Shown here: in pieces, positions 37,995-56,219 of the stretch
Layout of the letters: every line of letters starts with the position of its first letter
How positions within the stretch are numbered: position 1 is the stretch's first letter
NCBI GenBank assembly: GCA_965214705.1
Contig: CBDCCI010000002.1
Location: 672,001-736,000, forward strand
DNA: 64,000 bases
Direction of reading: 5' to 3'
Origin: Alphaproteobacteria bacterium
Lineage (GTDB): Bacteria; Pseudomonadota; Alphaproteobacteria; UBA828
Notes under the pieces: generated by a model
Database searches by the model: none
The model's input: the letters and a program-made list of their open reading frames with translations, nothing else
What the model was told of the DNA's origin: nothing
Made by a program: the position numbers and the translations under genes

Positions 37995-38054
37995 GGATGT
38001 CATTGTCGGGGGGATGGCACGCTGCGGATTTTCCCAATGTTAATCTTTTATTGC

Positions 38055-40053: not shown

Positions 40054-41232
40054 TTACGGCGGGGGACTCTCGCCGTCATCACCCAACAGGTTCCCGCCGA
40101 TGCTCTCGGTGATGCGCGACGCGGCAGTCTGCATGGAGTCCCGCGCCAGGTGAGCATAGCGGGCCGTGGTCTGAACCTGGGTGTGCCCGAGGAGCTTCCC
40201 GATCATGGTCAGGCTCTCGCCGAGCGCCAGCGCCCTGCTCGCGAAACTATGACGTAGGTCATGAATTCGCACGTCCTCAAGGTCCGCCCGCTTGCGGATG
40301 CGCCGCCAGGGTCGTTGAAGGTCGGTGAGGTGAGTGCCGGGCAGCTTGCCCGCGATGACCCACGGATTGTCATCCTCGCGGGGAATGGCTGACAGCACGG
40401 CTCGTGCCTCCGGCCCCAGCGGCACCGCCCTTCCGCCGGTCTTGGCATCGGGAAGCTCGATGCAGTCTCCCTTCACATTCTCCCACTGCAAGTCCCGGAT
40501 CTCCGACATTCGGCACCCCGTAAGCAACAGCAGGCGGAAGGCCGCGACCGCGGACGGCATCTCTTCCTCCGCCTCGCGCAGCACCTCCCCAAGGCGCGCA
40601 ACCTCATCCTCCGACAGGAACCGCTCGCGCTGGTGCTCCTTGTAGCGCTTCACATGCCGGCACGGATTGGAGCCGTCTTGGCGCCAGCCCCACACCTCCG
40701 CGAGGTTGAAAAGCTTCGAGAGAACTCCCAGGGTCCGGTTGGCCTGGTAGGGCTTGTCCCGCAGGCCGTGATGCAGGGCGGCAATGTCCTTGCGCTGAAC
40801 CTCCGAGACCCGCATTTCCCCCATCACGGGGTCGATGAACAGCTTCACCGACCGGCTGTACTCCTGCTGGGTGCTCGGCTTGCAGTGATCGGGCACATAC
40901 TCCTTGAGGAACCGCGCGGTCAGCTCGGCCACAGTCGGCTCGGCCTCGCGCTTGGCCTCCCCGTCCCGGGGGTCGATGCCCTTCTGCGCAAGCGACAGGA
41001 TCTCCAGCGCCCGGGCTCGAGCCCGGTCCGCGCTCACCACCCCGGGGGCGCCGATGGTGTACCAGCGAAGCTTCCCGTCGACGCGGGTCTGGACGACATA
41101 GACCTTTCGCCCTGATCGACGCACCCGCAGCCCGAAGCCGGTGAGTTCGCCGTCCCAGTAGACGGTATCGGTGCCGTCCGCCTTGATGGCGTCGACGGAT
41201 CGCTTGGTGATGCGGGGAATTCGCTTGACCAT
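40054..41232 (-). CDS. int: Tyrosine integrase with N-terminal arm-binding domain
   Basis: YWDGELTGFGLRV, LLTGCRMSE, HDLRHSFAS, LGH, TARYAH; adjacent to tRNA att. Confidence 0.93.
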   Translation of the reverse strand: MVKRIPRITKRSVDAIKADGTDTVYWDGELTGFGLRVRRSGRKVYVVQTRVDGKLRWYTIGAPGVVSADRARARALEILSLAQKGIDPRDGEAKREAEPTVAELTARFLKEYVPDHCKPSTQQEYSRSVKLFIDPVMGEMRVSEVQRKDIAALHHGLRDKPYQANRTLGVLSKLFNLAEVWGWRQDGSNPCRHVKRYKEHQRERFLSEDEVARLGEVLREAEEEMPSAVAAFRLLLLTGCRMSEIRDLQWENVKGDCIELPDAKTGGRAVPLGPEARAVLSAIPREDDNPWVIAGKLPGTHLTDLQRPWRRIRKRADLEDVRIHDLRHSFASRALALGESLTMIGKLLGHTQVQTTARYAHLARDSMQTAASRITESIGGNLLGDDGESPPP

Positions 41233-41350
41233 GCCGCGAGGGCATATCATGCTGGCAAACTATTGGCAAACAGAATCGAACAACTCGGAGACCCCTCCAG
41301 ACCGCTTCAGTCCACAACCGAACGGCCTAAACTATTGATCTATCATGCTT

Positions 41351-41386
41351 CCGTCCCCTCTAGTCCGCTCCAGTCCGTTCTAGTCC
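41351..41386 (+). repeat. 10-bp-period tandem repeats (YAGTCC core), putative integrase arm sites
   Basis: CCGTCCCCTC TAGTCCGCTC CAGTCCGTTC TAGTCC; related copies at ~41294-41315. Confidence 0.55.
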
Positions 41387-41402
41387 ACAAGGGGTTTCGA
41401 AA

Positions 41403-41447
41403 CTCATAACCTGAAGGTCGTAGGTTCAAATCCTACCCCCGCAACCA
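41403..41447 (+). tRNA. 3' half of tRNA-fMet (CAT) = att site (attR-like), not a complete tRNA
   Basis: CTCATAAC anticodon loop, GGTTCAAATCC T-arm, CCGCAACCA end; 5' half absent. Confidence 0.88.
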
Positions 41448-41449
41448 GC

Positions 41450-41490
41450 GAAAACGCCGCTAAGACCACACCTTAGCGGCGTTTTCATTT
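41450..41490. terminator. Intrinsic terminator hairpin after the tRNA fragment
   Basis: GAAAACGCCGCTAAG-7nt-CTTAGCGGCGTTTTC followed by T-rich tract. Confidence 0.75.
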
Positions 41491-41566
41491 TCGGGAAACC
41501 CCTTCCGAAATGGGCTTCGGAATGCCCTCGGAACGGAATTTGGAAGCTCAAGGCGCCAACTTTCAG

Positions 41567-41595
41567 TTGACGCCTGTACGGCACGACCGTACATT
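41567..41595 (+). promoter_or_regulatory. higBA promoter with operator; probably leaderless transcript
   Basis: TTGACG-17bp-TACATT; palindrome TGTACGG-N5-CCGTACA; ATG begins 7 nt after the -10. Confidence 0.7.
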
Positions 41596-41601
41596 GCTGG
41601 C

Positions 41602-41886
41602 ATGGAGATTCGGAGCATCCGCCACAGAGGGCTGAGGCGGCTTGTTGAAGATGACGACACCAGGGGAATCCGGCCCGACTTGACCGTAAGGATACGGAGC
41701 ATCCTGGCCTCCCTCATCAGCGCCGCTGACATGGACGGCGTTGAGGGGCCGCCGGGCTGGCGCATCCATCGGTTGTCCGGCGACCGGGCCGGAACTTGGA
41801 GCATCAGCACCTCCGGCAACTGGCGGATTACCTTCGATATTCAGGATGGGGCAATCGCGAACCTGAATCTGGAAGACTACCACTGA
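41602..41886 (+). CDS. higB: HigB toxin (plasmid maintenance killer family)
   Basis: IRSIRHRGLRRL..PPGWRIHRLSGDRAGTWSI..GNWRITF..LEDYH. Confidence 0.92.
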   Translation: MEIRSIRHRGLRRLVEDDDTRGIRPDLTVRIRSILASLISAADMDGVEGPPGWRIHRLSGDRAGTWSISTSGNWRITFDIQDGAIANLNLEDYH

Positions 41887-41948
41887 CGGGCGAGTGCTTA
41901 TCTCACCGATGACACAGGCCACGATCTGGATATGAAGGACTGTCACCG

Positions 41949-42254
41949 ATGAGCGATGAACGAGTAAGGATCGGCATGACGCCGCCGCACCCTGGCAGCT
42001 TCATCCGCACCGAAATTCTGGATGAGCTGGGTCTCACGGTCTCTCGCGCCGCCGACATTCTCGGCGTGCGGCGGGCAACACTTTCAGATCTAATCAACGG
42101 AAAAGCGAGCCTCTCACCGGAAATGGCGCTCAGGATCGAGAAAGCGTTCGGGGTTTCCATGGACACGCTCTTGCGCATGGGAGCCTGGTACGACAGCCAC
42201 GCGATGCGCCGCCGCGCCGACGAGATTGACGTCAAGCCCTACCAGTCTACCTAG
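41949..42254 (+). CDS. higA: HigA antitoxin
   Basis: PPHPG..LGV.RATLSDLINGKASLSPEMALRIEKAFG. Confidence 0.93.
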   Translation: MSDERVRIGMTPPHPGSFIRTEILDELGLTVSRAADILGVRRATLSDLINGKASLSPEMALRIEKAFGVSMDTLLRMGAWYDSHAMRRRADEIDVKPYQST

Positions 42255-42329
42255 AAACTGAAGGCAACCCTGCAATAGCGTATGGTAGCGAGGCTTGGAA
42301 TAAATTACGTCAAGTACTCAAACGGAGCG

Positions 42330-42975
42330 ACACGGTTTTGTTCATCGGTTCGTGAATTTCGACGTGGTCGGGCCTTCCCTCGTGCCTGGCGCGGTCGAAG
42401 AGTTGGCACGGTTTCTCGAGTCAGCTGGCGTCGATCCTGACCTCGTGAGGGCCGAAGCAAGAAAAGGCGATCTCGTCCAGGCGGCGAGCTACGGACTGGA
42501 CCGCTTGACGAAACAACAGATGGGTGAGTTCATCTGGAGTCCATGTCGGTGCGGGACAGCATGGCCAGAGGAAATCCATCGAAATATCGTCAACCTGGGA
42601 CCACGAGACTACGTCACCACCAACTACGACGACCTGATCGAACAGAGCCTTCGCAAGTGGCATGAGAGCCGACCCTTCCGAACGGTAATAAACCGTCACC
42701 TCACAGAGACGGCTGCCATCGCCCGGACACATGCCAGCGACTACGTGTTCAAGCCGCATGGAGACGCCGGCGACATGGACAGCATCATCATGTCGAGGGA
42801 GCAGTATCGGGCACTACTACCTCAGGGAGGCGATGCGGGCGTCCGGCAGCGCATGCTGCAACGGGTTTACCGCTCCACAAGATTCCGCAGCCCAAACAGG
42901 ACGTGCAAAAGCAACCTATGCCGGCTCCGACGGCGCGATGTGCACTACGATGCTGTCGCCGGTGTGAACGACTAG
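42330..42975 (+). pseudogene. SIR2-like domain protein, degraded
   Basis: VLFIGS then stop; VTTNYDDLIE, KPHGD; homology appears lost after ~42825. Confidence 0.7.
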
Positions 42976-43343
42976 ACTAGGAATTCCAGCGGTCCGAGCG
43001 CGCCAATTGGGACCCTTAGCGCGGCGTCGGCGAAGCCGTCCGGCGGGGTCTTGCGGACGTTCTCGGGGGCGAGCCCGAGCCGGGGGAAGCGGAATCTGCG
43101 GATGCGCGATTCGGCCCTGGGGCGATGCGGTTCATGCCATTCTCCATCGGGGTTGCCTCGGCACGGCGGGGTCGGTCCGCCTGGCCGTCCTCAACGCCTG
43201 CCCCGATCCGACCCCTCCGGCTCCCGAAGGCGTCCCCGCGAGCCTGCGGCGCGAGGCTCAGTGAGACGGAGCCGGGTTTGAGCGAATAGCGGGTCTGGAC
43301 CGAGGGACATTCCCGGGTGGGCGGACCGGTCCAGTTGTGCTAG

Positions 43344-43492
43344 GGAACCTCTGATTTATCAGGGGTTCCCGTGGCACAGGGATGTGCCACCATTTTCGGT
43401 GGCTGTAAGTCGCTGAAAATGTGAGCAAAGCGGAAAGCGCGCTTCCGCCTTGCGCGTCTGAGAAATGCAGGAGGCACTTATTCAGACCTTCC
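43344..43492. mobile_element. 149-bp IS5-type MITE, copy 1
   Basis: TIR GGAACCTCTGATTTA / GGAAGGTCTGAATAA; TSD CTAG; 1 mismatch to copy 2. Confidence 0.9.
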
Positions 43493-43505
43493 CTAGCTGT
43501 TGTTG

Positions 43506-43787
43506 ATGGCCGGACCGACCGGAAACATCGAGGCCGTCGCGCGCGCCGTGTGCGCGAAGAGATTGGCGCACGACGGCAAGACCGAGGAGCAGCTCGCCAC
43601 CGACGTGGAGATGTACAGGCATGTCGTCGCTTCCTATCTGGAAGCCGGCGTGATAGACGAATCCGGGCGAGAGGTCCGGGATCTGAGCTGGGACGAGAAG
43701 CTCGACATCACTGGAGACTGGCTTGGAAGGCTTCCTGAGTCCGCGGCGGCATGGCGGAACGCGCGGTGCGGGTCGACGCTAGCGTGA
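43506..43787 (+). CDS. Small hypothetical protein, first gene of operon
   Basis: Stop overlaps next start (GTGATG); plausible helical protein. Confidence 0.65.
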   Translation: MAGPTGNIEAVARAVCAKRLAHDGKTEEQLATDVEMYRHVVASYLEAGVIDESGREVRDLSWDEKLDITGDWLGRLPESAAAWRNARCGSTLA

Positions 43788-45121
43788 TGGAGCGGCTGGC
43801 CATACGCGAGGTTCCGCGGCTGCGAGTGTCGAAAGAGGTTCGCAGGCCGAAGCAGTACGACCCGGCCAGGGAGTATCGCTTTCGCTACAAGTCGAAGAGG
43901 CACTCGCGACTTCCACATGTGGTGAAATTTTCGGGGGGCCGATCGAGCGGTATGCTGTTGTTCGCGCTTCTGGAAAACGGATTTCTCAATCAAGAACGAG
44001 GGGATGTCATTGTCTTCAACAACACGTCGGCGGAACATCCAGACACATACAGGTTTGTTGGGGACTGCATGCGGACAGCCCGGAACTATGGCATTCCATT
44101 CTTCCAGATAGAGTTCCAGACCTACGAGGATGCCTGGCGGGGCGAGTTTACGAGAATGCCCACGTACAGGCTTGTGAACGACCGGCCGAAGTCGGAGACG
44201 AACCCGGACGGGTTTCATTGGCGGGGCGAGGTGTTCGAAGAGCTGCTGTCCTGGAAGGGTTATGTGCCCAACAGGTTCCAGCGGATTTGCACACAGCATC
44301 TGAAGCTTGACGTTACGCGGAGTTTCCTGAGGGACTGGTTGGCCTCCAAACCGGCGATTCCGAGGCTGGGGCATTACGGGAATGGCTCAAGAATCGATGC
44401 GGACGCGACTTATCGGAGACATCGAGAGAACAGGGGTGAGGTGCCGCGAGAGATATTCGTCGACAAGCGTTCCTATGTTTGGGGACGACCGCATGCGAGG
44501 CCAGAGCAATGCTATCGGGATTTCTGCCCGGATTGGGTGCCGTTCGAGAACGAGGCCTTGAAAGGAAAGACGTTCGGTGACAGGGCGCGGTTCGGGAAGG
44601 GCGGCGTAGAGTATGTAGCGTTCATCGGGTTACGGGGCGACGAGCCTCATCGGATCGAGAGGGTGGAGACCCGGAACGAAGGCGATTCGGGTTACGAGGG
44701 TGAACATGTGTATATGCCGCTCGACGACATGGCGGTTACGCGGGATGACGTGAACAGGTTCTGGGAACGCCAGGACTGGGATCTGGCCCTGCCAAAGGAG
44801 ACGAGCCTGTCAAACTGCGTTTTCTGCTTCTTGAAGGGTTTGGGGAGTCTCCACGATATTCGAGATCGAATGGACGATGCGCAGAATGACAGTATCGAGG
44901 GTTTCGGGACGCTGGAAGAGACGCCGAGTGATCTGGCTTGGTGGGCGCGCGTTGAGTTGAAGTATGGGCGCGATCTGGAGGCGGAGGGGCGGCAGGTGCG
45001 CAGCAGCGCGACCCGGATCGGGTTCTTCGGAAGCGACAAGTTCACCTATGCGGACGTGGCGGAAGGTTCGGTTCCGGGCGAGCTGACCGAAGGCATGTTG
45101 CCGTGCGATTGCACGGAATGA
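43784..45121 (+). CDS. PAPS-reductase/PP-loop family protein (DndC/SspD-related but non-canonical)
   Basis: FSGGRSSG, FNNTSAEH, RICTQHLK, IGLRGDE, SNCVFCFLK, C-terminal PCDC. Confidence 0.85.
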   Translation: MMERLAIREVPRLRVSKEVRRPKQYDPAREYRFRYKSKRHSRLPHVVKFSGGRSSGMLLFALLENGFLNQERGDVIVFNNTSAEHPDTYRFVGDCMRTARNYGIPFFQIEFQTYEDAWRGEFTRMPTYRLVNDRPKSETNPDGFHWRGEVFEELLSWKGYVPNRFQRICTQHLKLDVTRSFLRDWLASKPAIPRLGHYGNGSRIDADATYRRHRENRGEVPREIFVDKRSYVWGRPHARPEQCYRDFCPDWVPFENEALKGKTFGDRARFGKGGVEYVAFIGLRGDEPHRIERVETRNEGDSGYEGEHVYMPLDDMAVTRDDVNRFWERQDWDLALPKETSLSNCVFCFLKGLGSLHDIRDRMDDAQNDSIEGFGTLEETPSDLAWWARVELKYGRDLEAEGRQVRSSATRIGFFGSDKFTYADVAEGSVPGELTEGMLPCDCTE

Positions 45122-46269
45122 CGCCGAGACCGATCTACCTCGACAATCAGGCGACCACACCAATGGACCCGTCGGTGCGCGAGGCCATGTGGCCTTGGTT
45201 GTGCGGGCAATTCGGGAATCCTCATTCGCGCGATCACGGGTTCGGCTGGGAGGCCTCTCAAGCGGTCCGGGAGGCGCGCGCGAGGGTCGCGCAGTTGGTC
45301 AATGCTGATGACGACGAGATCGTGTTCACGTCAGGGGCGACGGAGTCCTGCAACCTAGCGCTGCGCGGCGTGGCTGGGCAGCAAAGAAACGGAGAGCGGA
45401 GCCGTATTGTCACGGTATCGACCGAACACCCAGCCGTCATGGAGACGGTTCACGACCTGGGCAGGTCCGGGTTCGACGCGGTTGTACTGCCCGTCAGAGC
45501 GAATGGCCTGATCGATTTGTCGGAGTTGGAAGAGGCAACCGACGAGCGGACCTTACTGGTGTCGGTGATGGCCGTGAATAACGAGATCGGCGTAGTGCAG
45601 CCTCTGTCCCAAATAGCGAAGCGATGCCGAGAAGTGGGGGCGCTGTTCCATACGGATGCGACCCAGGCGGCAGGAAGATTAGGAATCGACGTAGAGGAAT
45701 GGGACGTGGACCTGCTGAGTCTTTCGGGGCACAAGGTTTACGGGCCGAAAGGCGTTGGCGCACTGTTCGTACGATCCGGCGTCGATTTGAGAGCGATTAT
45801 TACGGGCGGAGGTCAGGAAAGGGGGCTGAGAGGGGGGACGCTGCCTGTCCCGCTCGTGGTCGGGTTGGGCAAGTCCTGCGAAATGGCGTTGGAGAAGCAG
45901 GCCGATGATTGCGAGAGGATGCACACCTTGGCCGGGCGGCTCTACGCCTCGCTTCTCGACATTCGTCCAGACATGCGTCTGTTCGGGGACATGGACAAGC
46001 GCATCGCCGGGAACCTGAGCATAGGGTTCCCGGGGGTCTTGGCGGAGGAGGTGATTGCAGCGGTTTCGGATCGACTGGCCGTTTCAAGCGGTTCGGCGTG
46101 TTCGTCTACGAGCCTGGAGCCGTCGCGGGTGTTGATGGCTCTCGGCTTCGATGAAGAAACGGCTGTGACAGGGCTCAGGATAAGTCTGGGTCGGTTCACG
46201 ACGGACGAGGATATTGACGAAGCGGTGTCTGTTCTGACCAATTCAAAGATCATTTCCCGTAGAAATTGA
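45118..46269 (+). CDS. iscS: Cysteine desulfurase (IscS/DndA-like)
   Basis: IYLDNQATT, FGNPHS, FTSGATE, HTDATQA, SGHKVYGPKG, SSGSACSS; ATGA overlap. Confidence 0.93.
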   Translation: MTPRPIYLDNQATTPMDPSVREAMWPWLCGQFGNPHSRDHGFGWEASQAVREARARVAQLVNADDDEIVFTSGATESCNLALRGVAGQQRNGERSRIVTVSTEHPAVMETVHDLGRSGFDAVVLPVRANGLIDLSELEEATDERTLLVSVMAVNNEIGVVQPLSQIAKRCREVGALFHTDATQAAGRLGIDVEEWDVDLLSLSGHKVYGPKGVGALFVRSGVDLRAIITGGGQERGLRGGTLPVPLVVGLGKSCEMALEKQADDCERMHTLAGRLYASLLDIRPDMRLFGDMDKRIAGNLSIGFPGVLAEEVIAAVSDRLAVSSGSACSSTSLEPSRVLMALGFDEETAVTGLRISLGRFTTDEDIDEAVSVLTNSKIISRRN

Positions 46270-48398
46270 AAGCCATGACAAGGAAAGAGCCTGACCTGCG
46301 CTTCGGTCCGGGAAGCAGCGGGGGTTTCACACCGGCCGGTATCGCGGCCTTCGACAATCTTCGCCCTGCGGCCGTGGTTCGCGAGTTGATTCAGAACGGT
46401 CTGGATGCTGCCAAGAACGCAGACGAGCGGCCGGCTGTCGTGACGTTCAGGCTGGAGCGGAGGCCGCTGGCTTCGATACCGGGTATCGAGAGCTACAGAC
46501 GGGCGTTCAGGAAGGCAGTGGAACGGCAGCGCGAAATGGCCGATGGATCACTGCCGGATCAGGCGGAACTTGTCGTCGCACGGATGACCGATGCGCTCGA
46601 TAGCCAAGAACTGGATTTCCTGACCGTAATGGACAACGGCATTGGGCTGAACGAGCAACGCATGAACGCGTTGCTGAGCGACGGCGTAAGCGTGAAGCCA
46701 GGCGGGGCAACCGGCACGTATGGAAATGGGCATTCGACGGCCATTCCCGTGTCAGATCTCAGATACGTGCTGTACGGGGGCATTTCGGATGGCGGACTGC
46801 GGATCGGATCCGGACATGCGGTTCTCGCGTCTCATGTGGAGGCAGGGGATCGGTATCTGCGCGGCGGCGACGGGTTCTATATCAGGGATTTCGCAGCAGG
46901 CCGCGGCACGCTCTACGACTATGCCCGAAACGGAGAACTGCCGGAGCTGATCGAGGAGGCGTTGGCGGACGTTCGGGAGGCTTGGGGTCGGGGGACAGCG
47001 GTCATCATTCCTGCATTCAACAATTTCCTGGAAGACGAGACACTCTGGGAAATGGTCTCGCATGCTGCGTCGGCGAACTTCTTTGTAGCGATCGATGACG
47101 GCGATCTCGAGGTGGTTGTGGAGGACAGGCGGCCGGGGACAGACAGCGAGAAATGGATAGTGGACAAGGCCCGGCTGGCGTCGGTGCTCGTGACTCACAA
47201 GGAAAAGCGGCGGGCCAGGGCCTTCCTGAACGGGAAGAGGGCATTCGAGGGATACGAGGCCTATCGAAGAGGCAAACGCCAGACGGTGACGACGAGCGCA
47301 GGGAAGATCGGAATTTCCTTGAAGCAGGACGTTAAGGAACCTCTGATTTATCAGGGGTTCCCGTGGCACAGGGATGTGCCACCATTTTCGGTGGCTGTAA
47401 GTCACTGAAAATGTGAGCAAAGCGGAAAGCGCGCTTCCGCCTTGCGCGTCTGAGAAATGCAGGAGGCACTTATTCAGACCTTCCTTAAGGGGATGACGCG
47501 GGTCGACCTGTTTCGCAACGGGATGTGGGTTACAGACAGGATTCCTGGGTTCTACCAGAAGTTCACGGATCGAGTGCCGTTCCATGCGGTGCTCTCGCTC
47601 GATGCCGAGCAGGGTCGCGATCTGCACGACTGGATTCGGATTGCTGAGGGGCCCTTGCATGACGCGATCATCGTGAAGCGATTGCCGCGGGCTAGGCGGA
47701 CAGCCTGCTATCAGGCGCTCAGAGAAGTGGTTGACTGGCTCTGTGCGAACACGGAAACAGTATCCTCGGACGAGTACATGTCGCCGGATTTCCTGACGCT
47801 CGACTTCGGGGATGAGGAAGGCGGCGGGACCGGTCGGGTGCGGAAAGGACGGTTCTGGGGAGCACCAGTTCCTGTCGGCCGGGCGCCTGCGCGCCAAGTG
47901 CCGTTGTTTCGGGTGGACCCGGACTCGGAAGAGACGGAAGAGAGGGAGGAACGCCAAAACCGAAAACGTCGCGAGCGCGACAGGGAACGGAGGCATGATC
48001 GTCAGCGACAGCGGCCTTCCCTGCCCAGGTTTTTTCAGGCTGCATCCTGCCCGACGGGAGAGAACAGGCGCCGGATTGTTGTTGAGTGCGCGCGCGACTA
48101 CGCGAATGCCGAGTTACGGCTGGTGGTCGATGAAGCACTGGATGCGACATGCGAAAGGCACGGCCAGGATGGGTACGCGCCAGCGGTCCTGAGCGGGGTC
48201 ACAATCGATGGCAGGGCTGTGAATAACAGAGAGCTTGTACGCTGGGACGACAAGGTGGTGGGAGTAAGGTTGGGAGACCTCATCGCCGGCAGGTCGGTGG
48301 AGGTGGAGGCCGATTACAGGCTGGATGGCGAGTTTGCGGACTTGCTCACACCTTCGCTCAGGGTTGAGGTTTTCGCCGGGGAGAAGGACGAGGGCTAA
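46266..48398 (+). pseudogene. GHKL (HATPase_c)-type ATPase protein (~659 aa), interrupted by MITE copy 2
   Basis: RELIQNGLDA, DNGIG, GTYGNG, GTAVII; removing MITE + one TSD restores KQDVKGMTRVDLFRNG in frame. Confidence 0.85.
47336..47484. mobile_element. 149-bp IS5-type MITE, copy 2
   Basis: TSD TTAA (47332-47335, 47485-47488); same orientation as copy 1. Confidence 0.92.
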
Positions 48399-48429
48399 GG
48401 CGTCTGCGTTCGTCTCGAATGGGGGGAGG

Positions 48430-49306
48430 ATGAGAAAGCCGTACTCAATTGTTGCGGTTGAGCCCGGGCCGTCGAATGCGATCAGGGCGCATCAGCACCC
48501 GATTCTGGAGCCAGGCAATCTGTCGTTTCCGCAAGGTCGATACGAGCTTGAATTCCTGCCTGGCGAGGATCGGGGGTCTTTTGAGGTGACGCATCTTGTT
48601 AGCGGGGCGCCTCTGATTACGCGGATGCTCGAAGAAACAGAAGCGCAGTGCGTCTGCATAGTGTCCTCACCGATCTCGTCGTATCGAAAAACACACATGT
48701 CGTCGACGGCACGGCAGAAAGTGAGCTGGGACGCGGAGGAACTAGGAGAGCCGCCATTATTTACGCCGATGATTGTATGCGCGGAAGCGCGCGACGTTGT
48801 GCTCAGCTCGTCCCGGGATGGCGTTCATAAGGTATGGGATGGCCAGAGTATATCGTTTCATCGGGGCTCAAGGCTGGCCCTTGGCGAGGTCATACGTTTG
48901 GAATCGTCGATCTTGCAATTGCTGTCGTTGCACGAGATGCCGGGGTTGAAGGATGGCCAGTTCGAGGTCGACATCGAAACAGAGCCGTTCAGGTTCCGGG
49001 TGAACATGAGCAGCTCGCTTCACCGGTTCCTGCGGCATCGAGAGGATGCGCATCGCTGGAATATCATGACGCACATCGTAACTGCATGCCTCGCTAGACT
49101 TCAGAAGGATCATGAGGCGGACGACGGTGAGAGCGGTTGGCAGTCGCATCGAAACCTGAAGGCATTTGCGGATTATCTGGAAGTCAACGGGCTAGAGCAT
49201 TGGACGGATTGCGGAGTTTCGCCCTGAAAAGGTGGCGACGGCGCTCTATCCGCACCTCATGCCGGAGTCAGGTTTCGGCGAAGCTGGCGTGAGCGAAGAA
49301 CAATGA
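48430..49306 (+). CDS. Hypothetical protein (HPIL N-terminal motif); apparent 1-nt insertion near 49210
   Basis: ORF stops at 49227, but +1 frame reads AEFRPEKVATALYP.. to a TGA overlapping the next ATG. Confidence 0.7.
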
Positions 49307-50175
49307 GGGTGCTGGAGAGCCTTAAGGAACTGCGCGACAGTGACTATACGCGGTTCCGGAAAAGTCTGTTGAGGGTCAAGGGAAGCGACCTACAGAGAGA
49401 TTTTCTTGTAGAGGTGCGTTCGGGTGATGGTTTCCTGGAGAGACTTGGGCAGGTCGAAACGATAGGGACCAGGGAAGCCGAGCTGCTGCCCGAGCCGTTG
49501 ACGGAGCCGATGTTCAAGGAACCGCCGGCAGATACCGAGCGGATGTTGTATTCGTCCTGGTCGGCCGTCGCGCCAGCTCTGGCCTGTCGGTCGACCTTCT
49601 GGGCAGCGGTTACGCTCAACCATGTGCGGCATGGGCTTATTGATTCGGCATTTCTGGCGGCGAACGGAGGGAATCTCCCGGGGGGAGCGGAGCGCATCGA
49701 CTTTGCGCTGAATGACGTATCGAACAGCGGCCCGCAGCGGATAGATAACTGCGTGAGGACGGTGCTTCGGCGGCTGGGCGGGCTTCCGGAGGTACGAGGC
49801 AATCGTTCGGTGTACGTGGATTGCCCGTTCGCCAGGGCCTGGTGGCGCGAACGAATGATCGAACAGGCCTCAGCGGGCCGGGACGAAGTGGCGCAAAGCA
49901 TTCGGGCGGCATTTCGCTTCAGTCAGACCTATTGGGAGAAATTCATCGATCGGATTGTGTTCCGGAATTCGACATTCGGGTCGGAGAATATCCGGAGTTC
50001 CTTCGTGCGCGCACTTGCAGGGGCGCTACGGGACCATCCAGGTTCGGCACTGGAAAGTACCGAGGGCCTGCAGCGGGCCTGTCGACGGGCGACTGCATAT
50101 CAAGGGGGTCGGGAACTGAGCATTCTGGCGGATGACGAGCTGGACGAACTGATGAGGTGTGTCGTTCGATTGTGA
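49303..50175 (+). CDS. Hypothetical protein, tentatively DUF6339-like
   Basis: FWAAVTLNH and ARAWW motifs; ATGA coupling. Confidence 0.7.
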   Translation: MRVLESLKELRDSDYTRFRKSLLRVKGSDLQRDFLVEVRSGDGFLERLGQVETIGTREAELLPEPLTEPMFKEPPADTERMLYSSWSAVAPALACRSTFWAAVTLNHVRHGLIDSAFLAANGGNLPGGAERIDFALNDVSNSGPQRIDNCVRTVLRRLGGLPEVRGNRSVYVDCPFARAWWRERMIEQASAGRDEVAQSIRAAFRFSQTYWEKFIDRIVFRNSTFGSENIRSSFVRALAGALRDHPGSALESTEGLQRACRRATAYQGGRELSILADDELDELMRCVVRL

Positions 50176-50237
50176 TCGACGTTGGGCATGCGGTTGAGTT
50201 CTTTTGCCCAATCACAGCTAGATCGGAGTCTTCTTTC

Positions 50238-51572
50238 ATGAGCTGGAACGAGCGACGCGAACCATGGTCCTCGCAAGATGACGACGCGAGGTCGCAGTTC
50301 GACATGGACTACGCGCGAATAGTCCATTCCGCATCATTTCGGAGACTACAGGGTAAGACTCAAATCCTAAACCTCGGCGACAGCGACTTCTACAGAACAC
50401 GGCTTACCCACTCTTTGGAAGTTGCACAAATTGCAGGGGGAATAGTTCAACAGTTGAGAAAAGATTGCGTGAACCATGAAGCACGTTCGCTGTTGCCAGA
50501 GCATAGTCTCATCCAAACGATTGGCTTTGCCCACGATTTGGGTCACCCGCCTTTTGGCCACGGCGGCGAAGTTGCGCTAAATTACTGCATGCGAAATGAC
50601 GGCGGATTTGAAGGCAACGGTCAAACACTCCGTATCCTTTCTAAACTGGAGACTTTTTCCAAGAACAATGGCGCAAATCTGACACGACGCACTCTGCTAG
50701 GCTTGCTAAAGTACCCTGTTTCCTATAGTAGGGCTTCCGCAGAAGTGGAACAAGGGGATATGGAAACACCTGGGTCGTCTATCAAGATCATTGATAGACG
50801 ACGGTTTAAGCCACCCAAGTGCTTTTTGGATACCGAGGAAAGCGTGGTTAGGTGGATTTTGGAACCGCTGAGTCAGAACGATCGAAACACTTTTCTACAA
50901 ACGATCAAGGGGAATGATGGGGATCGTAAACCAGTACACAAGTCCTTCGACTGCACCATCATGGACGTTGCTGATGATATTGCATATGGCGTTCACGACC
51001 TGGAGGATGCAATTGAACTTGACTTGATATCGGAAAACAACTTCAGATGTTTGGTTCATGAGAAAGAATGTGTAACATTTCTGCGGTCTTTAGAACAACG
51101 ATATCCAGAGGAACCGACGGATTACGATTTTCTCGTGAAGAACTTGTTCAAAGAAAGAGCTACCCGCAAGCGTTATATTTCTCGATTAGTGCATCATTTT
51201 ATAGCGGACGTAAAGATGGGGGTCCAAGACAAGTTTTCCGACCCTCTCTTGCAATACCGGACCGGTCTCGATCCGGAGTCGACTACTTTTCTGAACGCAT
51301 TGAAAAGACTGATCCACGAAAGGGTCATCATGAGCCCCAGAGTTCAGCATCTCGAATTCAAAGGACAGCAGATGGTCGTGTCAGTGTTCGAGGCCTTGCA
51401 ATCCGATCCAAAGTCACTTGTACCGCGCGATGCCTTCCCCAATGTAAAGGGCGGAGAGTTGAATGATCGCTACATTTGCGATTATGTCGCTGCGATGACG
51501 GACGGGTCTCTTCTGAAGACATACGAGAGGCTCTTTAGCCCAAGAATGGGATCGGTTTTTGATCGACTATGA
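50238..51572 (+). CDS. dgt: dGTP triphosphohydrolase (candidate anti-phage dGTPase)
   Basis: FRRLQGKTQ, RTRLTHSLEV, AHDLGHPPFGHGGE, FEGNGQ, KYP, ADDIAY..HDLED, DYVAAMTD. Confidence 0.93.
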   Translation: MSWNERREPWSSQDDDARSQFDMDYARIVHSASFRRLQGKTQILNLGDSDFYRTRLTHSLEVAQIAGGIVQQLRKDCVNHEARSLLPEHSLIQTIGFAHDLGHPPFGHGGEVALNYCMRNDGGFEGNGQTLRILSKLETFSKNNGANLTRRTLLGLLKYPVSYSRASAEVEQGDMETPGSSIKIIDRRRFKPPKCFLDTEESVVRWILEPLSQNDRNTFLQTIKGNDGDRKPVHKSFDCTIMDVADDIAYGVHDLEDAIELDLISENNFRCLVHEKECVTFLRSLEQRYPEEPTDYDFLVKNLFKERATRKRYISRLVHHFIADVKMGVQDKFSDPLLQYRTGLDPESTTFLNALKRLIHERVIMSPRVQHLEFKGQQMVVSVFEALQSDPKSLVPRDAFPNVKGGELNDRYICDYVAAMTDGSLLKTYERLFSPRMGSVFDRL

Positions 51573-51658
51573 ATGTACAGATAGGACAATCGCCCTCTGT
51601 CGTCGAGTTCGTTGAGGGCTGGCTGGTCCACGAGTTGAACGGTGTACTAGCGGCGCGG

Positions 51659-52915
51659 TCAGACGACGCGAGCCGGTAGTTCTAGTTCGTGGTTGCCAAC
51701 CTCATTCCTGTACTTCTGGAGCAACTCGGCCTCGGCACGCTCCGATCGGTCCAGCATGTACAAAAGCAATTCAAGGAGAGTGCGCCTCGCGAAACGACGA
51801 ATCGTGCGGGTGGCCGGGTTCCACATCAATCCGGAATACGGGCTGGAGCCTAAGTCCCTCGGGAGTTTCGCCGTTTCCGCGACCGCGTCGACGAGGCCCA
51901 ATTCGTGCGTGAGGCGCGCGATGATGGTGACAAAAACGATCAGACCGGCGGGACGGAACAGGGCGCTCTCGTTCCGGTACCGGCGGACAACTGACTCGGT
52001 ATCCTCAGCGGAGAAGAAGTCACCCAGTTCGGGGAAGCCCTCGGCGAGCGCCTCGAAGAGTTCCCTCGTATGCCGGTAGTACTTGTTCAGGCGGTCGTCG
52101 TCCGGCCGGGACTTCTTCAGTTTGGCGGCCGAGGTGCGCAAGGGAATGTCGGCCAGCGTGTACCAGGTGAGCAGGATGTCGTAGAGATTGACTATGGTGG
52201 TGAGGCTCGTGACGTTGGACTGCGGCATGTTGCTCGAACCGACGAAGGCGATGCGGTCATCGCCGAACATGTCTGGGTTTTCGTCGATTAGCCAGCGGAC
52301 GGTCAACGCCATCACGTCGTCCTCGTCGAGCGCGATGACATCGAACTTGGAGACCGGCTTGGCCGTCTTGTTCAGGGTTGTAAATTGACGCCGGGTCCTG
52401 CGCAGGCCTTCGTCCGACTTCTCGTGCGCCACGAACATGACGGGGACCTCGTCAGTCTGAGCATGGGCGCTTAACTCCTCCACGGCGGCCTTGATTCCGG
52501 ACAGTCGGTGCTGGCCGTCGACCGCAAAAAGACTCTCGTCACCACGCAGGGTGAGGAAGCCGACGGATAGCATGGTGTCAGGAGACAGGGACTCGAGTTC
52601 GTCCGGGGTCCCCTTTTTCTGGACGTTGGTGAGAGGATGCCAGTTGGGCTGGCCGCCGTAGGTGGCGACGACGAGCGCATTGAAGAGGCGGTCCGGTTGC
52701 GTCGTGAGATAGTCGGCAATCTCCCTGGCCCGCTTGTCCTTCAGCTGGCGTTGGATCATCTCGGACAGCCGTTCGCTCTTGTGAAGCTCATCGGCGTAAT
52801 CAACCCGGCTTGCCAGGGTCGGCAAGTCGACTAGGCAGCAGTAGTAGACCCAGTCGCCCATCATGCCGCGGAGGGCGGGGAGCACGATCGAACCGGAAGT
52901 GCTCTCGTCGGTCAC
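51659..52915 (-). CDS. DGQHR domain / DndB-like protein
   Basis: PALRG.MGDWVYY, IQR, VDGQHR, FTTLNKTAKPV. Confidence 0.88.
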   Translation of the reverse strand: MTDESTSGSIVLPALRGMMGDWVYYCCLVDLPTLASRVDYADELHKSERLSEMIQRQLKDKRAREIADYLTTQPDRLFNALVVATYGGQPNWHPLTNVQKKGTPDELESLSPDTMLSVGFLTLRGDESLFAVDGQHRLSGIKAAVEELSAHAQTDEVPVMFVAHEKSDEGLRRTRRQFTTLNKTAKPVSKFDVIALDEDDVMALTVRWLIDENPDMFGDDRIAFVGSSNMPQSNVTSLTTIVNLYDILLTWYTLADIPLRTSAAKLKKSRPDDDRLNKYYRHTRELFEALAEGFPELGDFFSAEDTESVVRRYRNESALFRPAGLIVFVTIIARLTHELGLVDAVAETAKLPRDLGSSPYSGLMWNPATRTIRRFARRTLLELLLYMLDRSERAEAELLQKYRNEVGNHELELPARVV

Positions 52916-53478
52916 GAGAACGCCGCCATCATTGCCTTAGTGTCGGCTTCGATGTCGCCCTTGCAGCAAGGGGGGAGAAACGCGGTGATCAAACGCTGTT
53001 CCATGGCCTCGAGTTCCGCCGTGGTGACCTTGTCGTCGACGGGTGCGAAATGGAATCGCAGGATAGGGTGCCAATTGACGATCATCCACCCTAGTGCCGG
53101 TCGACGTCCCACTTCGCTCGGTTTGAAATAGTCCTGGTATCGGGCGCGCAGCGATCGGCGGGAATGGCGGCCGGCGATGCCGATGTACATGATGTAACCG
53201 TGCGGCGGCAGGAATGTGCGCTGGTCGGCGATGATGAAGGCGTATAGCCCTCGCTGATCGTTGGGAACATGCTGGATCTCGTTCTTGTCGAACCTGATGG
53301 AGTTCCAATGGAAAGGGTTCTCGGAAGGTTCAAGGGCGAGGATGGCGTCGGTGTTCAGGATAAATTTGATCTCGTACGCCCGAATTTCGGCCAGAGCGAC
53401 GTCCCTCTGTCGCGCAAGAGTCTCCATGTTCAGGGAGCCCAGGTCGGCTGGAGTGTCGGCGGACGGTGTGGACGGCAT
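52912..53478 (-). CDS. GIY-YIG-like nuclease
   Basis: GLYAF..MYIGIAG..SLRARY..E..LI..PPC; stop overlaps start of the DGQHR gene; start uncertain. Confidence 0.7.
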   Translation of the reverse strand: MPSTPSADTPADLGSLNMETLARQRDVALAEIRAYEIKFILNTDAILALEPSENPFHWNSIRFDKNEIQHVPNDQRGLYAFIIADQRTFLPPHGYIMYIGIAGRHSRRSLRARYQDYFKPSEVGRRPALGWMIVNWHPILRFHFAPVDDKVTTAELEAMEQRLITAFLPPCCKGDIEADTKAMMAAFS

Positions 53479-53853
53479 AGGCGGGTGTACATCATTCTGC
53501 GGAGTGGGGCCGGGGGGAGGAGCGGACGCGCGACCCGCGCCGAAACGCGGGCTTCGGAGGAAGACCAGGACGACCATGCTCCTCCCGAGAGAGGATCAAT
53601 ATTTGTCCCGGTTCCGTCAAGATACCGTGCTCGCCCGCCCGTGTGCCCGACATCTCACAATCGCAGACCGGGCTCCGCAGGCCCCTCGGTGATTGCTGCA
53701 CCCTCCCTGCGTGCATGAGCAACGGATCAAGGTGTTGCCACTTCCAAGACGCGGGCTCAATGATTCGGGCGAGCACTCAACACCTTGATCATGGCCGGGC
53801 GTGGTTGACCGGCCGCTTGGTGCCAAGAATTCCCGGTGCTGCCCGTTGTCGCA

Positions 53854-55108
53854 CTACAGCCATCCCCGCGCGCGGAATGCGTTGAGATCCACGCCGGGCG
53901 GCGCGTACCAGCCATCCGCCCCGTACCGGGCGCCCATGCTGTACGCCACTTCCTTGTTTCCGTAGGGAATCCGAAGCGGTGTTGGCGAACCCGCACTCGT
54001 CAGTGCCGTTTCGACCGGAGCTTTCGTCCGGACACGCTCCGGCCCGGACGTCCCACGCGAAGCTGTCGCTTTCTGCCTCTCCGTGCCCGGCCGGGTCCCC
54101 CCCCGGCTTGCGCGGCTTCCCGCCCCGTGACGCAGAACCGGCCGTCCCGCCGCCCGAATTCCTTCCCTCCCCCTGCCCGGAGTTCCGCCTCGGGGCATGC
54201 TCATCGAGGAACGCCCGGCAGATCGTGGCGGACTTCGTATAGCCCCTGGGCGGCTTGATCCCCTTGCTCTTCGCGATCGACGCGGCGAACTTCCGCATCT
54301 TCGCCGTCGGCGGCCGGTCCCCGCCGCGGCCATCGGCTTCGCCGAGGATCACGTCTTCTCCATCCGCGCTGCGCTCCCCGAGCCGGCCGATGATGCGCCG
54401 GGCCGAATCGCATACCGCGTCGATCGCCCCCGTCATCTCCTGCCGGCCGGTCAGCACGTCGTCCAGCAGGCACTCGAGCTCCGCCGTCACGCCCGGGTCC
54501 ACCAGCGCGGGATCGGCACGCTTCAGCACGCCGAACAGCGCGAGGCCCCGGTCCGTCGGCACGATGTTCTTGCCCTGCGCCGTCAGGAACCCCTGCTTCT
54601 TCAGGCCCGAGATGATCTCCGCCCGCGTCGCCGGCGTGCCGATCCCCTTGGCCTCCCGCAGCCGCTCGCGGAGCGCCTCGTCCTCGACGAAGCGCCATGC
54701 GTTCTGCATCGCCTCGATCAGCGTGCCTTCCCGGTAGCGCGGCGGCGGACGCGTCTCCTTGTCCTCGATCCCGGGATCGCTGAGCCGCGCGGTCTCGCCA
54801 TCCCGCAACGACGGCAGCGCCTGCGCCGCCTCGCCCTTCTCCTCGTCGGGCCTCCAGTCCGGAAAGGCGCCGCGCCAGCCGGCCTCGATGGGCTGGCGGC
54901 CGGTCGCCCGGAACTCGAATCCCCGCACGTCCAGCGTCACCGTGGTCTGGCGGTAGCGGTAGTCCGGCATGACCGAGGCCAGGTAGGACCGCGCGACCGC
55001 ATCGAACAGCTTCTTCTCGTCCGCCGTGAGACGAGGCCAGACCTCGCGCAGGTCGCCGATCCTGTTCACGTTGGGGACGATCGCGTGATGGCTCGCGCCC
55101 TCCAGCCC
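53854..55108 (-). pseudogene. topB: DNA topoisomerase III, C-terminal part with DUF5710-like tail (frame change at G8, 54097-54104)
   Basis: HHAI, KGIGTPATRAEII, PTAKM; LRIPYGNKE..GWYAPPG in shifted frame. Confidence 0.85.
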
Positions 55109-55340
55109 CTTGAACGAAGCCGCTACGCGGAGTTAGCGGCGTAGAGTTCATTCATTTCCGAGGCGTCGCGGGTGCCGTTTGTTCTGTGCGTTCGCTTCCC
55201 GGTTGCGTCAGTGGCGCTCCGCCCGTCGGGTGGCGGATCCCCAGCAGCCTCCCGATCACCAGTGGTTAGCATCGACCCCTGCGACGGACCGTCGCCGGAT
55301 CGGTCCGGCGGCGCGCCGTCGCGATCCAGGGAGATCGATA

Positions 55341-56219
55341 ATGACCGGGACCGCGTGCGACACGAACACCGTCACCCCTCTTCGCCAGCGCATGGAGGAG
55401 CAGCTCCGCATCGCCAATCTGGCCGCGAGCACGTCCAAGGCCTACATCTGCGAGATCAAGAACCTGGCCAGGTACTACGACGCCTCGCCGGACGAGCTCG
55501 ACGCCGAGCAGGTGCGCCAGTGGTACCTGGGGCGGATCGACAAGGGGCTCAGTCCGGGCACGACCAACGTCTCCTTCGCCGCGCTGAACTTCCTCTACAT
55601 CGACACACTCGGCTGGCCTGACCATGTCGCCGGCCTGCGCTCCCGCAAGAAGCCCGGCAAGCTGCCGCGCTACATGTCGGAGCAGGAGGTCGAGCACCTC
55701 ATCCTTGCGACACCCGACCTCCGCCACCGTGCTGCCATTGTCACCGGCTATGGCGGCGGGCTCCGCATCTCCGAGACCTTGGCCATCAAGGTCGGCGACA
55801 TCCTGTCGGAGAAGAAGCTGCTGCACATCCCCTCCGGCAAAGGCGGCACCGAGAGAATGGCACCGTTGCCGGACATCGTCATCCACTACTTGCGCGTCTA
55901 CTACAGGAACATCTGGCCGCGTCCGACGAACTGGCTCTTCTACGGCGTCTCGCTCGACAGGCCCATCGCAACGGAGACCTTGCAGGCCGCCTTCAGGAGG
56001 GCGCGCGACATTGCCGAGCTCGACCGCAGCTACACCTTCCATTGCCTGCGCCATTCGGCGGCGACCCATCTCCTCGAGCGCGGCGGCGATATCGAGGTGA
56101 TCCGGGACATGCTCGGCCATCGAAGCGCGAACACGACCCGTCACTACGCCCGCGTCACCGGCAAGATGTTCGAGGGCCTCGACCACCCGATCTCAGGCTT
56201 CGCAGCGTTGCGCAACTGA
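55341..56219 (+). CDS. Tyrosine recombinase of IS91-like element (copy 2)
   Basis: One visible aa difference from copy 1; full catalytic set. Confidence 0.92.
   Translation: MTGTACDTNTVTPLRQRMEEQLRIANLAASTSKAYICEIKNLARYYDASPDELDAEQVRQWYLGRIDKGLSPGTTNVSFAALNFLYIDTLGWPDHVAGLRSRKKPGKLPRYMSEQEVEHLILATPDLRHRAAIVTGYGGGLRISETLAIKVGDILSEKKLLHIPSGKGGTERMAPLPDIVIHYLRVYYRNIWPRPTNWLFYGVSLDRPIATETLQAAFRRARDIAELDRSYTFHCLRHSAATHLLERGGDIEVIRDMLGHRSANTTRHYARVTGKMFEGLDHPISGFAALRN

Follow-up and report, generated by a model that had tools for sequence, protein, structure and literature searches.

Do a divergent PP-loop enzyme, a cysteine desulfurase and a GHKL ATPase that are encoded side by side form a single defense system that marks DNA with sulfur? 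The question is raised by a locus in a 64,000-nt stretch of an Alphaproteobacteria bacterium genome (assembly GCA_965214705.1, contig CBDCCI010000002.1); this whole stretch is called the window below, and all coordinates are positions in it. A preliminary description made from the sequence had proposed an undescribed sulfur-modification defense system consisting of a small upstream protein, a PP-loop enzyme, a desulfurase, a GHKL ATPase, two unknown proteins and a dGTPase, faced by a convergent GIY-YIG/DGQHR gene pair. The core of that proposal is upheld by the tests that were run, but its gene set was too wide. We define the element as a cassette of five co-oriented genes (43784-50175) that encode the PP-loop enzyme and the desulfurase (the sulfur pair) and the GHKL ATPase and two other proteins (the trio, with subunits A, B and C). 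In our assessment, the cassette is reasonably likely to be a mobile, restriction-modification-like (or BREX-like) defense system, with sulfur on DNA as its most likely self mark.

Conservation of the cassette and apparent exchange of its modifier

Conservation was assessed in 39 other loci that carry the PP-loop gene, five of them from one-per-species genomes, 31 from metagenomes and three from genomes of the genus or phylum of the window. In tblastn searches with the window proteins, at least one trio gene adjoined the PP-loop gene in 30 of these 39 loci, or 30 of the 31 that could be assessed; the other eight could not be judged, their contigs ending within a few hundred to ~2600 bases (L027, L029, L032, L038, L041, L045, L047, and L048). 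Conservation of the gene set as a unit, on which the preliminary description had made its proposal depend, was thus found for the five genes. All five were seen in 18 loci (the B gene of L005 was found by clustering) and occur in two block orders, namely PP-loop gene and desulfurase followed by A, B, and C, or A, B, and C followed by PP-loop gene, (DGQHR), and desulfurase, with the order inside the blocks kept. The sulfur pair and the trio move as blocks. Homology with L018, the closest relative fetched (~85-86% DNA identity), spans 43780-50179, coinciding exactly with the five genes. The dGTPase and the small upstream open reading frame (ORF; 43500-43787), both counted as members before, were absent from all 39 other loci (by tblastn in the case of the small ORF), and the DGQHR and GIY-YIG-like pair is not part of the core either, although it recurs at one other locus, L025.

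The distribution of the cassette is patchy. A full-length ortholog is present in three of 21 same-genus genomes, the window genome included, and the PADLOC model PDC-M33A, which recognizes the GHKL subunit, matches eight of 401 genomes sampled from the phylum. Named hosts include Gammaproteobacteria, Spirochaetia, Ca. Poriferihabitans, Poribacteria, Paracoccaceae, and Gemmatimonadetes. The named PP-loop records are metagenome-assembled genomes throughout (four of four named family rows and five of five named one-per-species records); the style of their identifiers, together with the presence of small parts of the window in sponge and coral metagenome runs, suggests sponge- and coral-type symbiont hosts. 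With an integrase, AbiE, a SIR2 fragment, and a dGTPase alongside, this patchy distribution makes the cassette look mobile in the manner of defense genes.

The trio was also found with a different partner. We collected 15 trio loci that lack the PP-loop gene (three plasmids, six genomes, and six contigs of viral collections). The cytosine methylase gene dcm is adjacent or near in nine of the 15, with vsr alongside in seven of those nine; an N6-methylase gene is present in two more, and the remaining four show no methylase in the available DNA, two of them being cut short. With the same queries, the 39 PP-loop loci and the 64-kb window yielded neither Dcm nor Vsr nor an N6-methylase. The canonical PDC-M33 locus, L058, has a C5 cytosine methylase gene directly upstream on the same strand. 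These counts bear out the earlier suggestion that such trios stand next to DNA cytosine methyltransferases, and the survey for swaps with Dcm that had been suggested gave a difference (nine of 15 loci without the PP-loop gene vs. none of 39 with it). Dcm and the PP-loop gene thus appear to be mutually exclusive beside the trio, suggesting that the modifier has been exchanged.

Three of the nine Dcm loci (L062-L064) carry genes for MzaC-like Z1 and MzaD-like DUF4420 (PD-(D/E)xK) proteins, then a GHKL gene closest to PDC-M33A and two genes for proteins of ~300 and 270 aa, with Dcm and Vsr next door. The A-B-C architecture may thus be common to PDC-M33 and Mza-type systems. The window has no Z1, DUF4420, or methylase gene, and all that the Mza-like loci demonstrate is the recurrence of the trio architecture with other effectors. 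A conserved protein of ~75 aa is encoded directly upstream of the GHKL gene in eight of the 15 methylase-type trio loci (L012, L013, L014, L059, L065, L068, L069, and L070); the same queries did not detect it in any PP-loop-type locus. Its role may be that of a fourth component or of a controller protein.

The same observations bear on the explanation that the sulfur pair and the trio are two independent systems placed side by side in a defense island, in which case the pair could be a spare iron-sulfur (Fe-S) or tRNA-thiolation pair. Defense genes do cluster here (AbiE, the SIR2 fragment, the dGTPase, and two integrases), and one locus, L001, has the pair without the trio. We disfavor this explanation and regard it as highly improbable in view of the overlapping start and stop codons, the adjacency across phyla in 30 of the 31 loci that could be judged, the exact five-gene homology unit in L018, the mutual exclusion of Dcm and the PP-loop gene beside the trio, and a predicted interface (see below) built from elements specific to the PP-loop-linked trio. 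In L001, two proteins of 346 and 274 aa without Pfam or PADLOC matches follow the PP-loop/desulfurase pair (L001:10001-14775); they may be an alternative partner.

The putative sulfur writer, its predicted docking and the GHKL trio

The ORFs and motifs of the cassette were located in the ORF listing where the preliminary description had placed them (Table 1). The PP-loop protein, our candidate for the writer, carries the motifs FSGGRSSGM, SNCVFCFLKG, and C-terminal LPCDCTE. The SGGRSS motif is invariant in 18 of 18 sequences, and the cysteines C169, C345xxC348, and C441xC443, the latter in a C-terminal LPC(D/E)CT(E/D), are invariant in the family. The protein has no Pfam match at E <= 0.01. 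Among the PADLOC models, it matches SspD (PDLC02782; 36.2 bits, 1.3e-9), with residues 283-362 aligned on positions 103-176 of the 277-position model, and BrxP (1.7e-3). The PAPS-reductase family PF01507 (PAPS, phosphoadenosine phosphosulfate) matches 12 of 15 members of the PP-loop family weakly (best 6.5e-4), and we take the PAPS-reductase likeness apparent in these sequences to be real, though the curated threshold failed. An AlphaFold2 model (pLDDT 79.7) has weak local Foldseek matches to adenosine phosphosulfate/PAPS reductases (2goy and 4bwv; probability 0.87-0.94, E 0.03-0.05), and the protein has large insertions relative to the PAPS-reductase core. Such features would be in keeping with an ATP-dependent adenylating enzyme that holds an Fe-S cluster and receives the persulfide of the desulfurase on a mobile cysteine tail. 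The family is large, with 1385 clusters at E <= 0.001, and every name present among them is 'hypothetical'. Genomes of the same genus also contain many other PAPS-reductase-like ORFs of ~300-550 aa, up to nine matches per genome; these ORFs (e.g., G000:C1:1360775-1361392) are similar to the PP-loop protein in both its halves (E 1e-6 to 1e-13).

The desulfurase belongs to class V (Pfam Aminotran_5, PF00266; 3.6e-79, 266.9 bits vs. a cut-off of 21.5). It matches the PADLOC models SspA (4.1e-145) and DndA (6.6e-145) and remains under every NCBIfam equivalog cut-off (IscS, 452 vs. 643; DndA TIGR03235, 392 vs. 480 bits). The genome carries two more IscS-like genes, 45% and 43% identical to that of the cassette. 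The desulfurase gene adjoins the PP-loop gene in 24 of the 39 loci, and its adjacency could not be judged in nine.

Taking the proteins from L015, an ortholog locus that is intact, we modeled a complex of B, C, and the PP-loop enzyme, folded together with one alignment each and with the PP-loop enzyme as the scored partner. The docking obtained an ipSAE of 0.78 (runs 0.80, 0.78, and 0.74) compared to 0.04 for the best of three controls; the runs agreed in at least 91% of contacts, and the pLDDT of the partner was at least 82. Of 80 solved complexes, 58 attained this ipSAE mark, as did two of 110 mismatched pairs; these counts are a rough guide here (own alignments, three chains). Every confident contact is with C, between its residues 65-79 and 124-135 and residues 116-122, 195-199, and 263-267 of the enzyme. 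The first two enzyme stretches are the family-invariant QTYED and RLGH, and the third (263-267) is variable. On the C side, the contacts fall on a (L/M)(T/S)ExE(F/Y)..PP..TE motif and an insertion that all 12 PP-loop-linked copies and none of the four methylase-linked copies possess; the interface therefore consists of the features that distinguish the PP-loop-linked subfamily. The PP-loop enzyme is accordingly predicted to dock on the DUF6339-like subunit, C.

The trio corresponds to the PADLOC candidate PDC-M33ABC, with A, B, and C matched in this order on one strand and with weak matches for B and C; its order and sizes agree with the canonical PDC-M33ABC locus L058 (2.2e-91, 2.1e-38, and 8.5e-37). 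Intact orthologs in L015 match PDC-M33A at 1.4e-34 (L015:11898-13868) and, for the DUF6339-like protein, PDC-M33C at 1.2e-5. All 15 sequences of the GHKL subunit keep E40, N44, D123, G127, G150, G153, and G155, and all three Bergerat motifs are present (I, E..N; II, DxGxG; III, the Gly-rich lid); the RNGMWI and AEGPLH motifs, distal to the ATP-binding motifs, are kept in the same 15 of 15. The Pfam HATPase_c match is below its threshold (21.2 bits, cut-off 26.4), and a PDB sequence search with the N-terminal part of the GHKL protein returned nothing at E <= 10. Family alignments of B and C contain no invariant acidic or histidine residue, and both subunits are therefore taken as non-catalytic. 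The preliminary description had called them unknown proteins; the trio is, however, already a PADLOC candidate. In the protein atlas, the PDC-M33B-like protein matched only clusters without names, and the DUF6339-like protein had no usable match. The PDC-M33 name presumably comes from a list of untested candidates, and PDC-M33 is a candidate system as far as our literature search showed.

The trio of the window genome has recently been disabled, and the writer pair is intact. The two pieces of the GHKL ORF (46266-47408 and 47457-48398) lie in the same frame and are separated by a miniature inverted-repeat transposable element (MITE), whose insertion added 153 bases, kept the frame, and introduced stop codons. 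Without the MITE, the two parts amount to 356 + 303 = 659 aa, in agreement with the ~659-aa protein described earlier. A second MITE upstream of the cassette forms with the first a 155-nt direct repeat, being 98% identical to 47333-47487. Members of this family are 149 nt long, end in inverted repeats (GGAACCTCTGA... / ...TCAGACCTTCC), and are flanked by duplicated 4-bp palindromic targets (CTAG, TTAA). In all, 18 copies (the two of the window and 16 more) occur in the genome at 94-100% identity, which indicates that the family was active recently. The L018 locus aligns with 43780-47337 and then with 47487-50179, the TTAA bases being common to both blocks, and thus represents the empty MITE site.

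The second lesion is one extra base near 49210 in the PDC-M33B-like gene, so that the annotated frame ends at 49227; read in the +1 frame, the gene regains its conserved C-terminus and overlaps the start at 49303 through an ATGA. Hence, of the start/stop overlaps reported earlier for the operon, those at 43784, 45118, and 46266 were found as described, and that at 49303 exists only in the +1 frame because of the 1-nt insertion. Both lesions were traced in assembled public contigs, which at low depth (2-3x for run X6) give presence and not frequency. In X1 and X3, two runs of one study, and in X5, from another study, contigs pass from the GHKL gene into the MITE; those of X3 and X5 do not differ from the window at 49210. 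Run X6, from a third study, contains a ~99%-identical lineage in which one contig skips exactly the 153 bases and another is without the extra base. No RNA data set appeared among the sequencing runs listed for the window, a result that has no bearing on expression. Decay of the trio with the writer kept fits the loss of a costly restriction function, in a single case. A strain with an intact writer and a broken trio beside a ~99%-identical lineage in which the GHKL and PDC-M33B-like genes are intact constitutes a natural experiment.

Proposed mechanism and relation to known systems

In the mechanism that we propose, the desulfurase, assigned by family and presumed to be active, would take sulfur from cysteine as a persulfide. 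The PP-loop enzyme would use ATP to activate an oxygen of the substrate and swap in sulfur, as its likeness to PAPS reductase, SspD, and BrxP and its invariant cysteines suggest, and would probably employ an Fe-S cluster and the C-terminal Cys-x-Cys tail. The most likely substrate would be the DNA backbone, giving a phosphorothioate as in Dnd, Ssp, Tdp, and BREX type 4; this mark is favored because the only characterized relatives of the writer, SspD and BrxP, make phosphorothioate according to the available text of PMC12914056, and because the neighboring genes are typical of phosphorothioate systems. The writer, as predicted by the complex model, would be docked on the DUF6339-like subunit of a complex of the GHKL ATPase and two non-catalytic subunits, and the ATPase would be expected to clamp and scan DNA using ATP, like MutL and MORC proteins. 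Other lineages pair the same trio with Dcm, usually accompanied by Vsr, the modifier apparently having been exchanged as PglX for BrxP between BREX types. The trio contains no obvious nuclease, and the action on unmarked DNA would therefore be either non-nucleolytic or exerted by variable neighbors, such as GmrSD-like proteins, a helicase pair, or, here, perhaps the DGQHR and GIY-YIG-like proteins.

The lack of a recognizable nuclease in the trio would also be expected if the sulfur module and the trio were a writer only, with the GHKL trio replacing DndD/DndE, SspB/SspC, or BrxC as the scanning and target-selecting apparatus and with the neighbors performing restriction. The predicted docking of the writer on the trio and the variable nuclease and helicase genes that abut the cassette (GmrSD-like, helix-turn-helix (HTH) protein plus helicase, HNH, and DGQHR plus GIY-YIG-like) speak for such an arrangement, as do two reports as far as their available texts go: phosphorothioate synthesis requires a PAPS-domain protein and an NTPase (PMC12914056), and the scanning core DndD-DndE is argued to be able to take on sulfur enzymes or, alternatively, cytosine methylases (Rakesh et al., 2024). 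Yet many complete cassettes have no recurrent nuclease neighbor in the available DNA (e.g., L002, L016, L024, and L026), and a writer-helper role would be odd for the Dcm-linked trios, as Dcm is sequence-specific alone and should need no scanning ATPase. Moreover, both inactivating lesions in the window lie in the trio and not in the writer, which is the pattern expected if the restriction part is lost first. We consider a writer-only cassette possible but less likely than a complete restriction-modification-like system.

The nature of the mark is a separate matter. The PP-loop enzyme is far from DndC (no match) and only partly SspD-like, its PP-loop reads SGGRSS, it has large insertions compared to the PAPS-reductase core, and Dcm, with which the trio is paired elsewhere, modifies bases. 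Each of these features could be accommodated if the mark were not a backbone phosphorothioate, that is, if the enzyme thiolated a DNA base or acted on RNA, tRNA, or a nucleotide in defense signaling. Against this, we know of no natural enzymatic thio-base in DNA, the swap with the DNA-modifying Dcm suggests DNA and not RNA as the target, and the recurrent neighbors (DGQHR/DndB-like proteins, DUF262/GmrSD-like proteins, and a dedicated desulfurase) are those found around phosphorothioate systems. We therefore hold a mark other than backbone phosphorothioate to be unlikely.

The cassette could not be mapped onto a described Dnd, Ssp, or BREX set, in agreement with the earlier proposal that it is undescribed: the only traces in PADLOC are the partial SspD match (36 bits) and BrxP at 1.7e-3. 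Among the ten proteins of 43500-53577, PADLOC matched none of the partner proteins SspB/SspC, DndD/DndE, or BrxC/PglZ/BrxL (not all of these models were confirmed to be present in the library), and no protein of the genome exceeded the DndD cut-off. The cassette resembles Ssp and BREX type 4 in combining a PAPS-reductase-type PP-loop enzyme, whose best models are SspD and BrxP, with a desulfurase and an NTPase, and in the DUF262/GmrSD-type neighbors of some loci; its NTPase, in contrast, is a GHKL (Bergerat-fold) protein with two subunits of unknown kind and not a P-loop protein. In BREX type 4, as described in the available text of PMC12914056, the sulfur writer takes the place of the methylase of other BREX types, which parallels the Dcm-to-PP-loop swap. 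With Dnd the cassette shares a dedicated DndA-like desulfurase, a PP-loop enzyme with conserved cysteines, and a nearby DGQHR (DndB-like) protein. It differs in that the genome has no DndC match and no DndD at cut-off, the desulfurase and the DGQHR protein fall under the DndA and DndB cut-offs, and no Dnd protein beyond DndA was matched by PADLOC among the ten proteins. The GHKL, ~290-aa, and DUF6339-like proteins match PDC-M33 A, B, and C in the same order and sizes, whereas the partner is a sulfur module and the C subunit has gained a motif and an insertion absent from the methylase-linked copies. MADS was also considered and then dropped.

Several GHKL families (MORC and paraMORC1-5) have been noted in comparable restriction-modification settings, beside cytosine methylases, Vsr, and superfamily 2 (SF2) helicases (Iyer, Abhiman, and Aravind, 2008), and SF2 helicases also follow the cassette in L018, L020, L022, and L039; the available part of that paper has no mention of 'PAPS' or 'PP-loop'. 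A January 2026 study of BREX (PMC12914056) recognizes, in its available text, four DNA phosphorothioate writer families (dnd, ssp, tdp, and brxPCZL) and lists MNT-HEPN and DUF262 among other candidate neighborhoods; the same text mentions no GHKL ATPase (GHKL, HATPase, MutL, and Hsp90 are absent). The modifier choice described in the available text of Rakesh et al. (2024) concerns the DndD-DndE core and not a GHKL core. In the available text of PMC10853773, MORC, HSP90, 'histidine kinase', PAPS, and gyrase are absent (GHKL and HATPase were not looked for). Our literature search, whose coverage excluded supplementary tables and subscription journals, found no description of a sulfur pair combined with a GHKL trio.

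Taken further, and more tentatively, the cassette may represent a fifth, mechanistically distinct sulfur-writing route in which a MORC/MutL-like GHKL clamp with two adaptors carries the writer and accepts either a methylase or a sulfur writer; in its boldest form, this proposal would involve a new DNA thio-modification and not phosphorothioate. The place of the proposed GHKL clamp is taken by an ABC or P-loop NTPase in Dnd, Ssp, and BREX type 4, and the cassette would, if this is true, constitute a fifth phosphorothioate writer family with a different motor. PDC-M33 would also acquire a function open to testing, as would, more broadly, the GHKL ATPases whose proximity to methylases has been on record since 2008. 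How one defense core changes its self mark could be explained in concrete terms by the swap of Dcm for the PP-loop enzyme together with the predicted docking site, and the large PP-loop family may be a major unrecognized epigenetic system in sponge- and coral-type symbionts.

A number of points weigh against a sulfur-marking defense cassette as the preferred reading. We infer the sulfur mark, its substrate, and the defense role alike from sequence, and the docking is a model confidence and not a measurement. The assignment of the writer is affected by several negative results: the SspD match covers only ~80 residues and not the full-length model; the window protein scores 14.2 bits (E 0.046) against PF01507 and does not reach the cut-off of 22.5; the DndC model TIGR03183 (cut-off 290.4 bits) has no match at E <= 0.001 in the whole genome, the PP-loop gene included; PDB sequence searches with the protein and with its profile returned nothing at E <= 10; and Foldseek gave no matches to its model at E <= 0.001. 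No recognizable nuclease signature occurs in A, B, or C, which leaves most loci without an identified restriction effector. The locus set was obtained by pattern-seeded searches and includes many related sponge- and coral-type metagenomes, so its members are not independent samples; in L001 the PP-loop gene and desulfurase occur with 10-kb flanks and no trio, and in six loci with some flank (L033, L035, L038, L041, L048, and L060) the desulfurase is not adjacent. Finally, the Dcm and Vsr genes beside the trio could in some loci be parts of a common type II system next door; L014 has a gene for a type II restriction enzyme after Dcm-Vsr.

Neighboring genes and island context

Table 1. Features of the cassette and of its surroundings in the window
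Feature	Position	Strand	Remarks
HNH protein	36316-37050		surroundings of cassette
Nucleotidyltransferase fragment	37692-37994		surroundings of cassette
AbiEii/AbiEi	38055-39839		surroundings of cassette
Tyrosine integrase	40054..41250	-	Pfam Phage_integrase 3.2e-22 and Arm-DNA-bind_3; left side of island, outside cassette
HTH_3 protein	41949-42254		surroundings of cassette
SIR2_2 fragment, 207 aa	42352-42975		surroundings of cassette
MITE copy upstream of cassette	43344..43492	.	CTAG duplicated 43340-43 / 43493-96
95-aa ORF, reality doubtful	43500..43787	+	no family match; outside conserved unit
Putative PP-loop ATP pyrophosphatase, PAPS-reductase type, very divergent, 445 aa	43784..45121	+	intact here
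Class-V (IscS/NifS/DndA-like) cysteine desulfurase	45118..46269 (ORF from 45103/45118)	+	proposed sulfur donor; intact
GHKL ATPase (PDC-M33A-like), N-terminal part up to MITE	46266..47335	+	PADLOC PDC-M33A 2.9e-25
MITE in GHKL gene, 149 nt	47336..47484	.	TTAA duplicated 47332-35 / 47485-88; terminal inverted repeats
GHKL ATPase, C-terminal part	47487..48398	+	collinear with intact orthologs by tblastn; charged linker, C-terminal domain
PDC-M33B-like subunit, ~290 aa if intact	48430..49306 (listed ORF 48325-49227)	+	PADLOC PDC-M33B 7.3e-5, weak
DUF6339-like / PDC-M33C-like subunit	49303..50175	+	Pfam DUF6339 2.1e-4, 21.6 bits vs. cut-off 23.2, weak
Anti-phage dGTPase	50238..51572 (ORF from 50157)	+	NF041026 1.5e-161, 538.3 bits vs. 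cut-off 400; known defense gene, outside cassette
DGQHR-domain protein, DndB-like, not DndB	51659..52915	-	TIGR03187 111.6 bits vs. cut-off 58.85; convergent on cassette
188-aa GIY-YIG-like protein	52912..53478 (ORF to 53577)	-	overlaps start of DGQHR gene
Topoisomerase gene, C-terminal half only	53789-55069		right of cassette
Second integrase	55179-56219		right of cassette

The surroundings of the cassette (36316-43000 and 53789-56219) are a mosaic of defense and mobile-element genes. The GC content is 0.52-0.64 at 43.3-53.6 kb compared to ~0.70 to the right, and within this region it is 0.52 in the dGTPase gene vs. 0.58-0.62 in the cassette. The dGTPase family match begins at residue 30; the real start is therefore probably near 50238, without overlap with the previous gene.

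The DGQHR protein reaches only 47.5 bits against the DndB equivalog TIGR03233 (cut-off 328). It is possibly an accessory protein, and the 188-aa protein a possible accessory nuclease. The pair recurs in convergent orientation directly after the trio in L025 (53% and 35% identity). The GIY-YIG label given earlier to the 188-aa protein has no support from Pfam (no match at E <= 0.1) but gains some from a conserved RGxYAF...YIMYIG...R...E pattern and from weak fold matches. Its family comprises 65 members, all without Pfam domains, whose pattern reads RGxYAF..YIMYIG..RSLRxRY..E, and G77-x-Y79, Y98-I-G100, R108/R113, and E160 are invariant in 21 sequences. Its model (pLDDT 70.9) has fold matches to the GIY-YIG nucleases 2lwf (probability 0.99), Hpy188I, Eco29kI, and T4 EndoII, all at E > 0.01; entries that we take to be GIY-YIG nucleases hold ranks 1, 2, 3, 9, 13, 14, 18, and 46 among the matches listed.

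Other genes recur beside the cassette elsewhere. GmrSD/DUF262-type proteins (PADLOC HEC-05, PDC-M55C, and weak SspE) abut it in L003, L004, L030, L042, and L046, with a tblastn match in L005. An HTH protein of ~700 aa and a 736-aa SF2 helicase follow it in L018, L020, L022, and L039, and a related pair occurs in L015 and L019. Four loci (L005, L022, L023, and L025) have an HNH protein in common. In L004 and L005, the PP-loop and desulfurase genes are separated by a gene for a protein of 635-674 aa that matches Pfam DndB weakly (cut-off 29.1), over the cut-off in L004 (1.2e-7, 31.5 bits) and under it in L005 (1.4e-5, 24.7 bits); altogether, DGQHR-domain or weakly DndB-like proteins were found at four loci. 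In L015 (15715-17289) and L019 (11399-12970), the cassette is followed by a protein of ~524 aa with a weak match to a SAM-methyltransferase family (Methyltransf_23, 1.9e-4) and then by one of ~660 aa.

Integrase homologues lie near the cassette in L015 and L016. Searches for the ends of the island found no tRNA genes or Rfam families in 36-60 kb and 39-55 kb and no 13-mers common to the left part (39000-43400) and the right part (50100-56000). Next to the integrase gene of the window, a 140-nt non-coding stretch (41400-41539), in which ARAGORN detected no tRNA and Rfam no family, is 90.7% identical to L015:4653-4792 of a same-genus genome, and the flanking genes are ~69% identical. This stretch may be an attachment or regulatory site.

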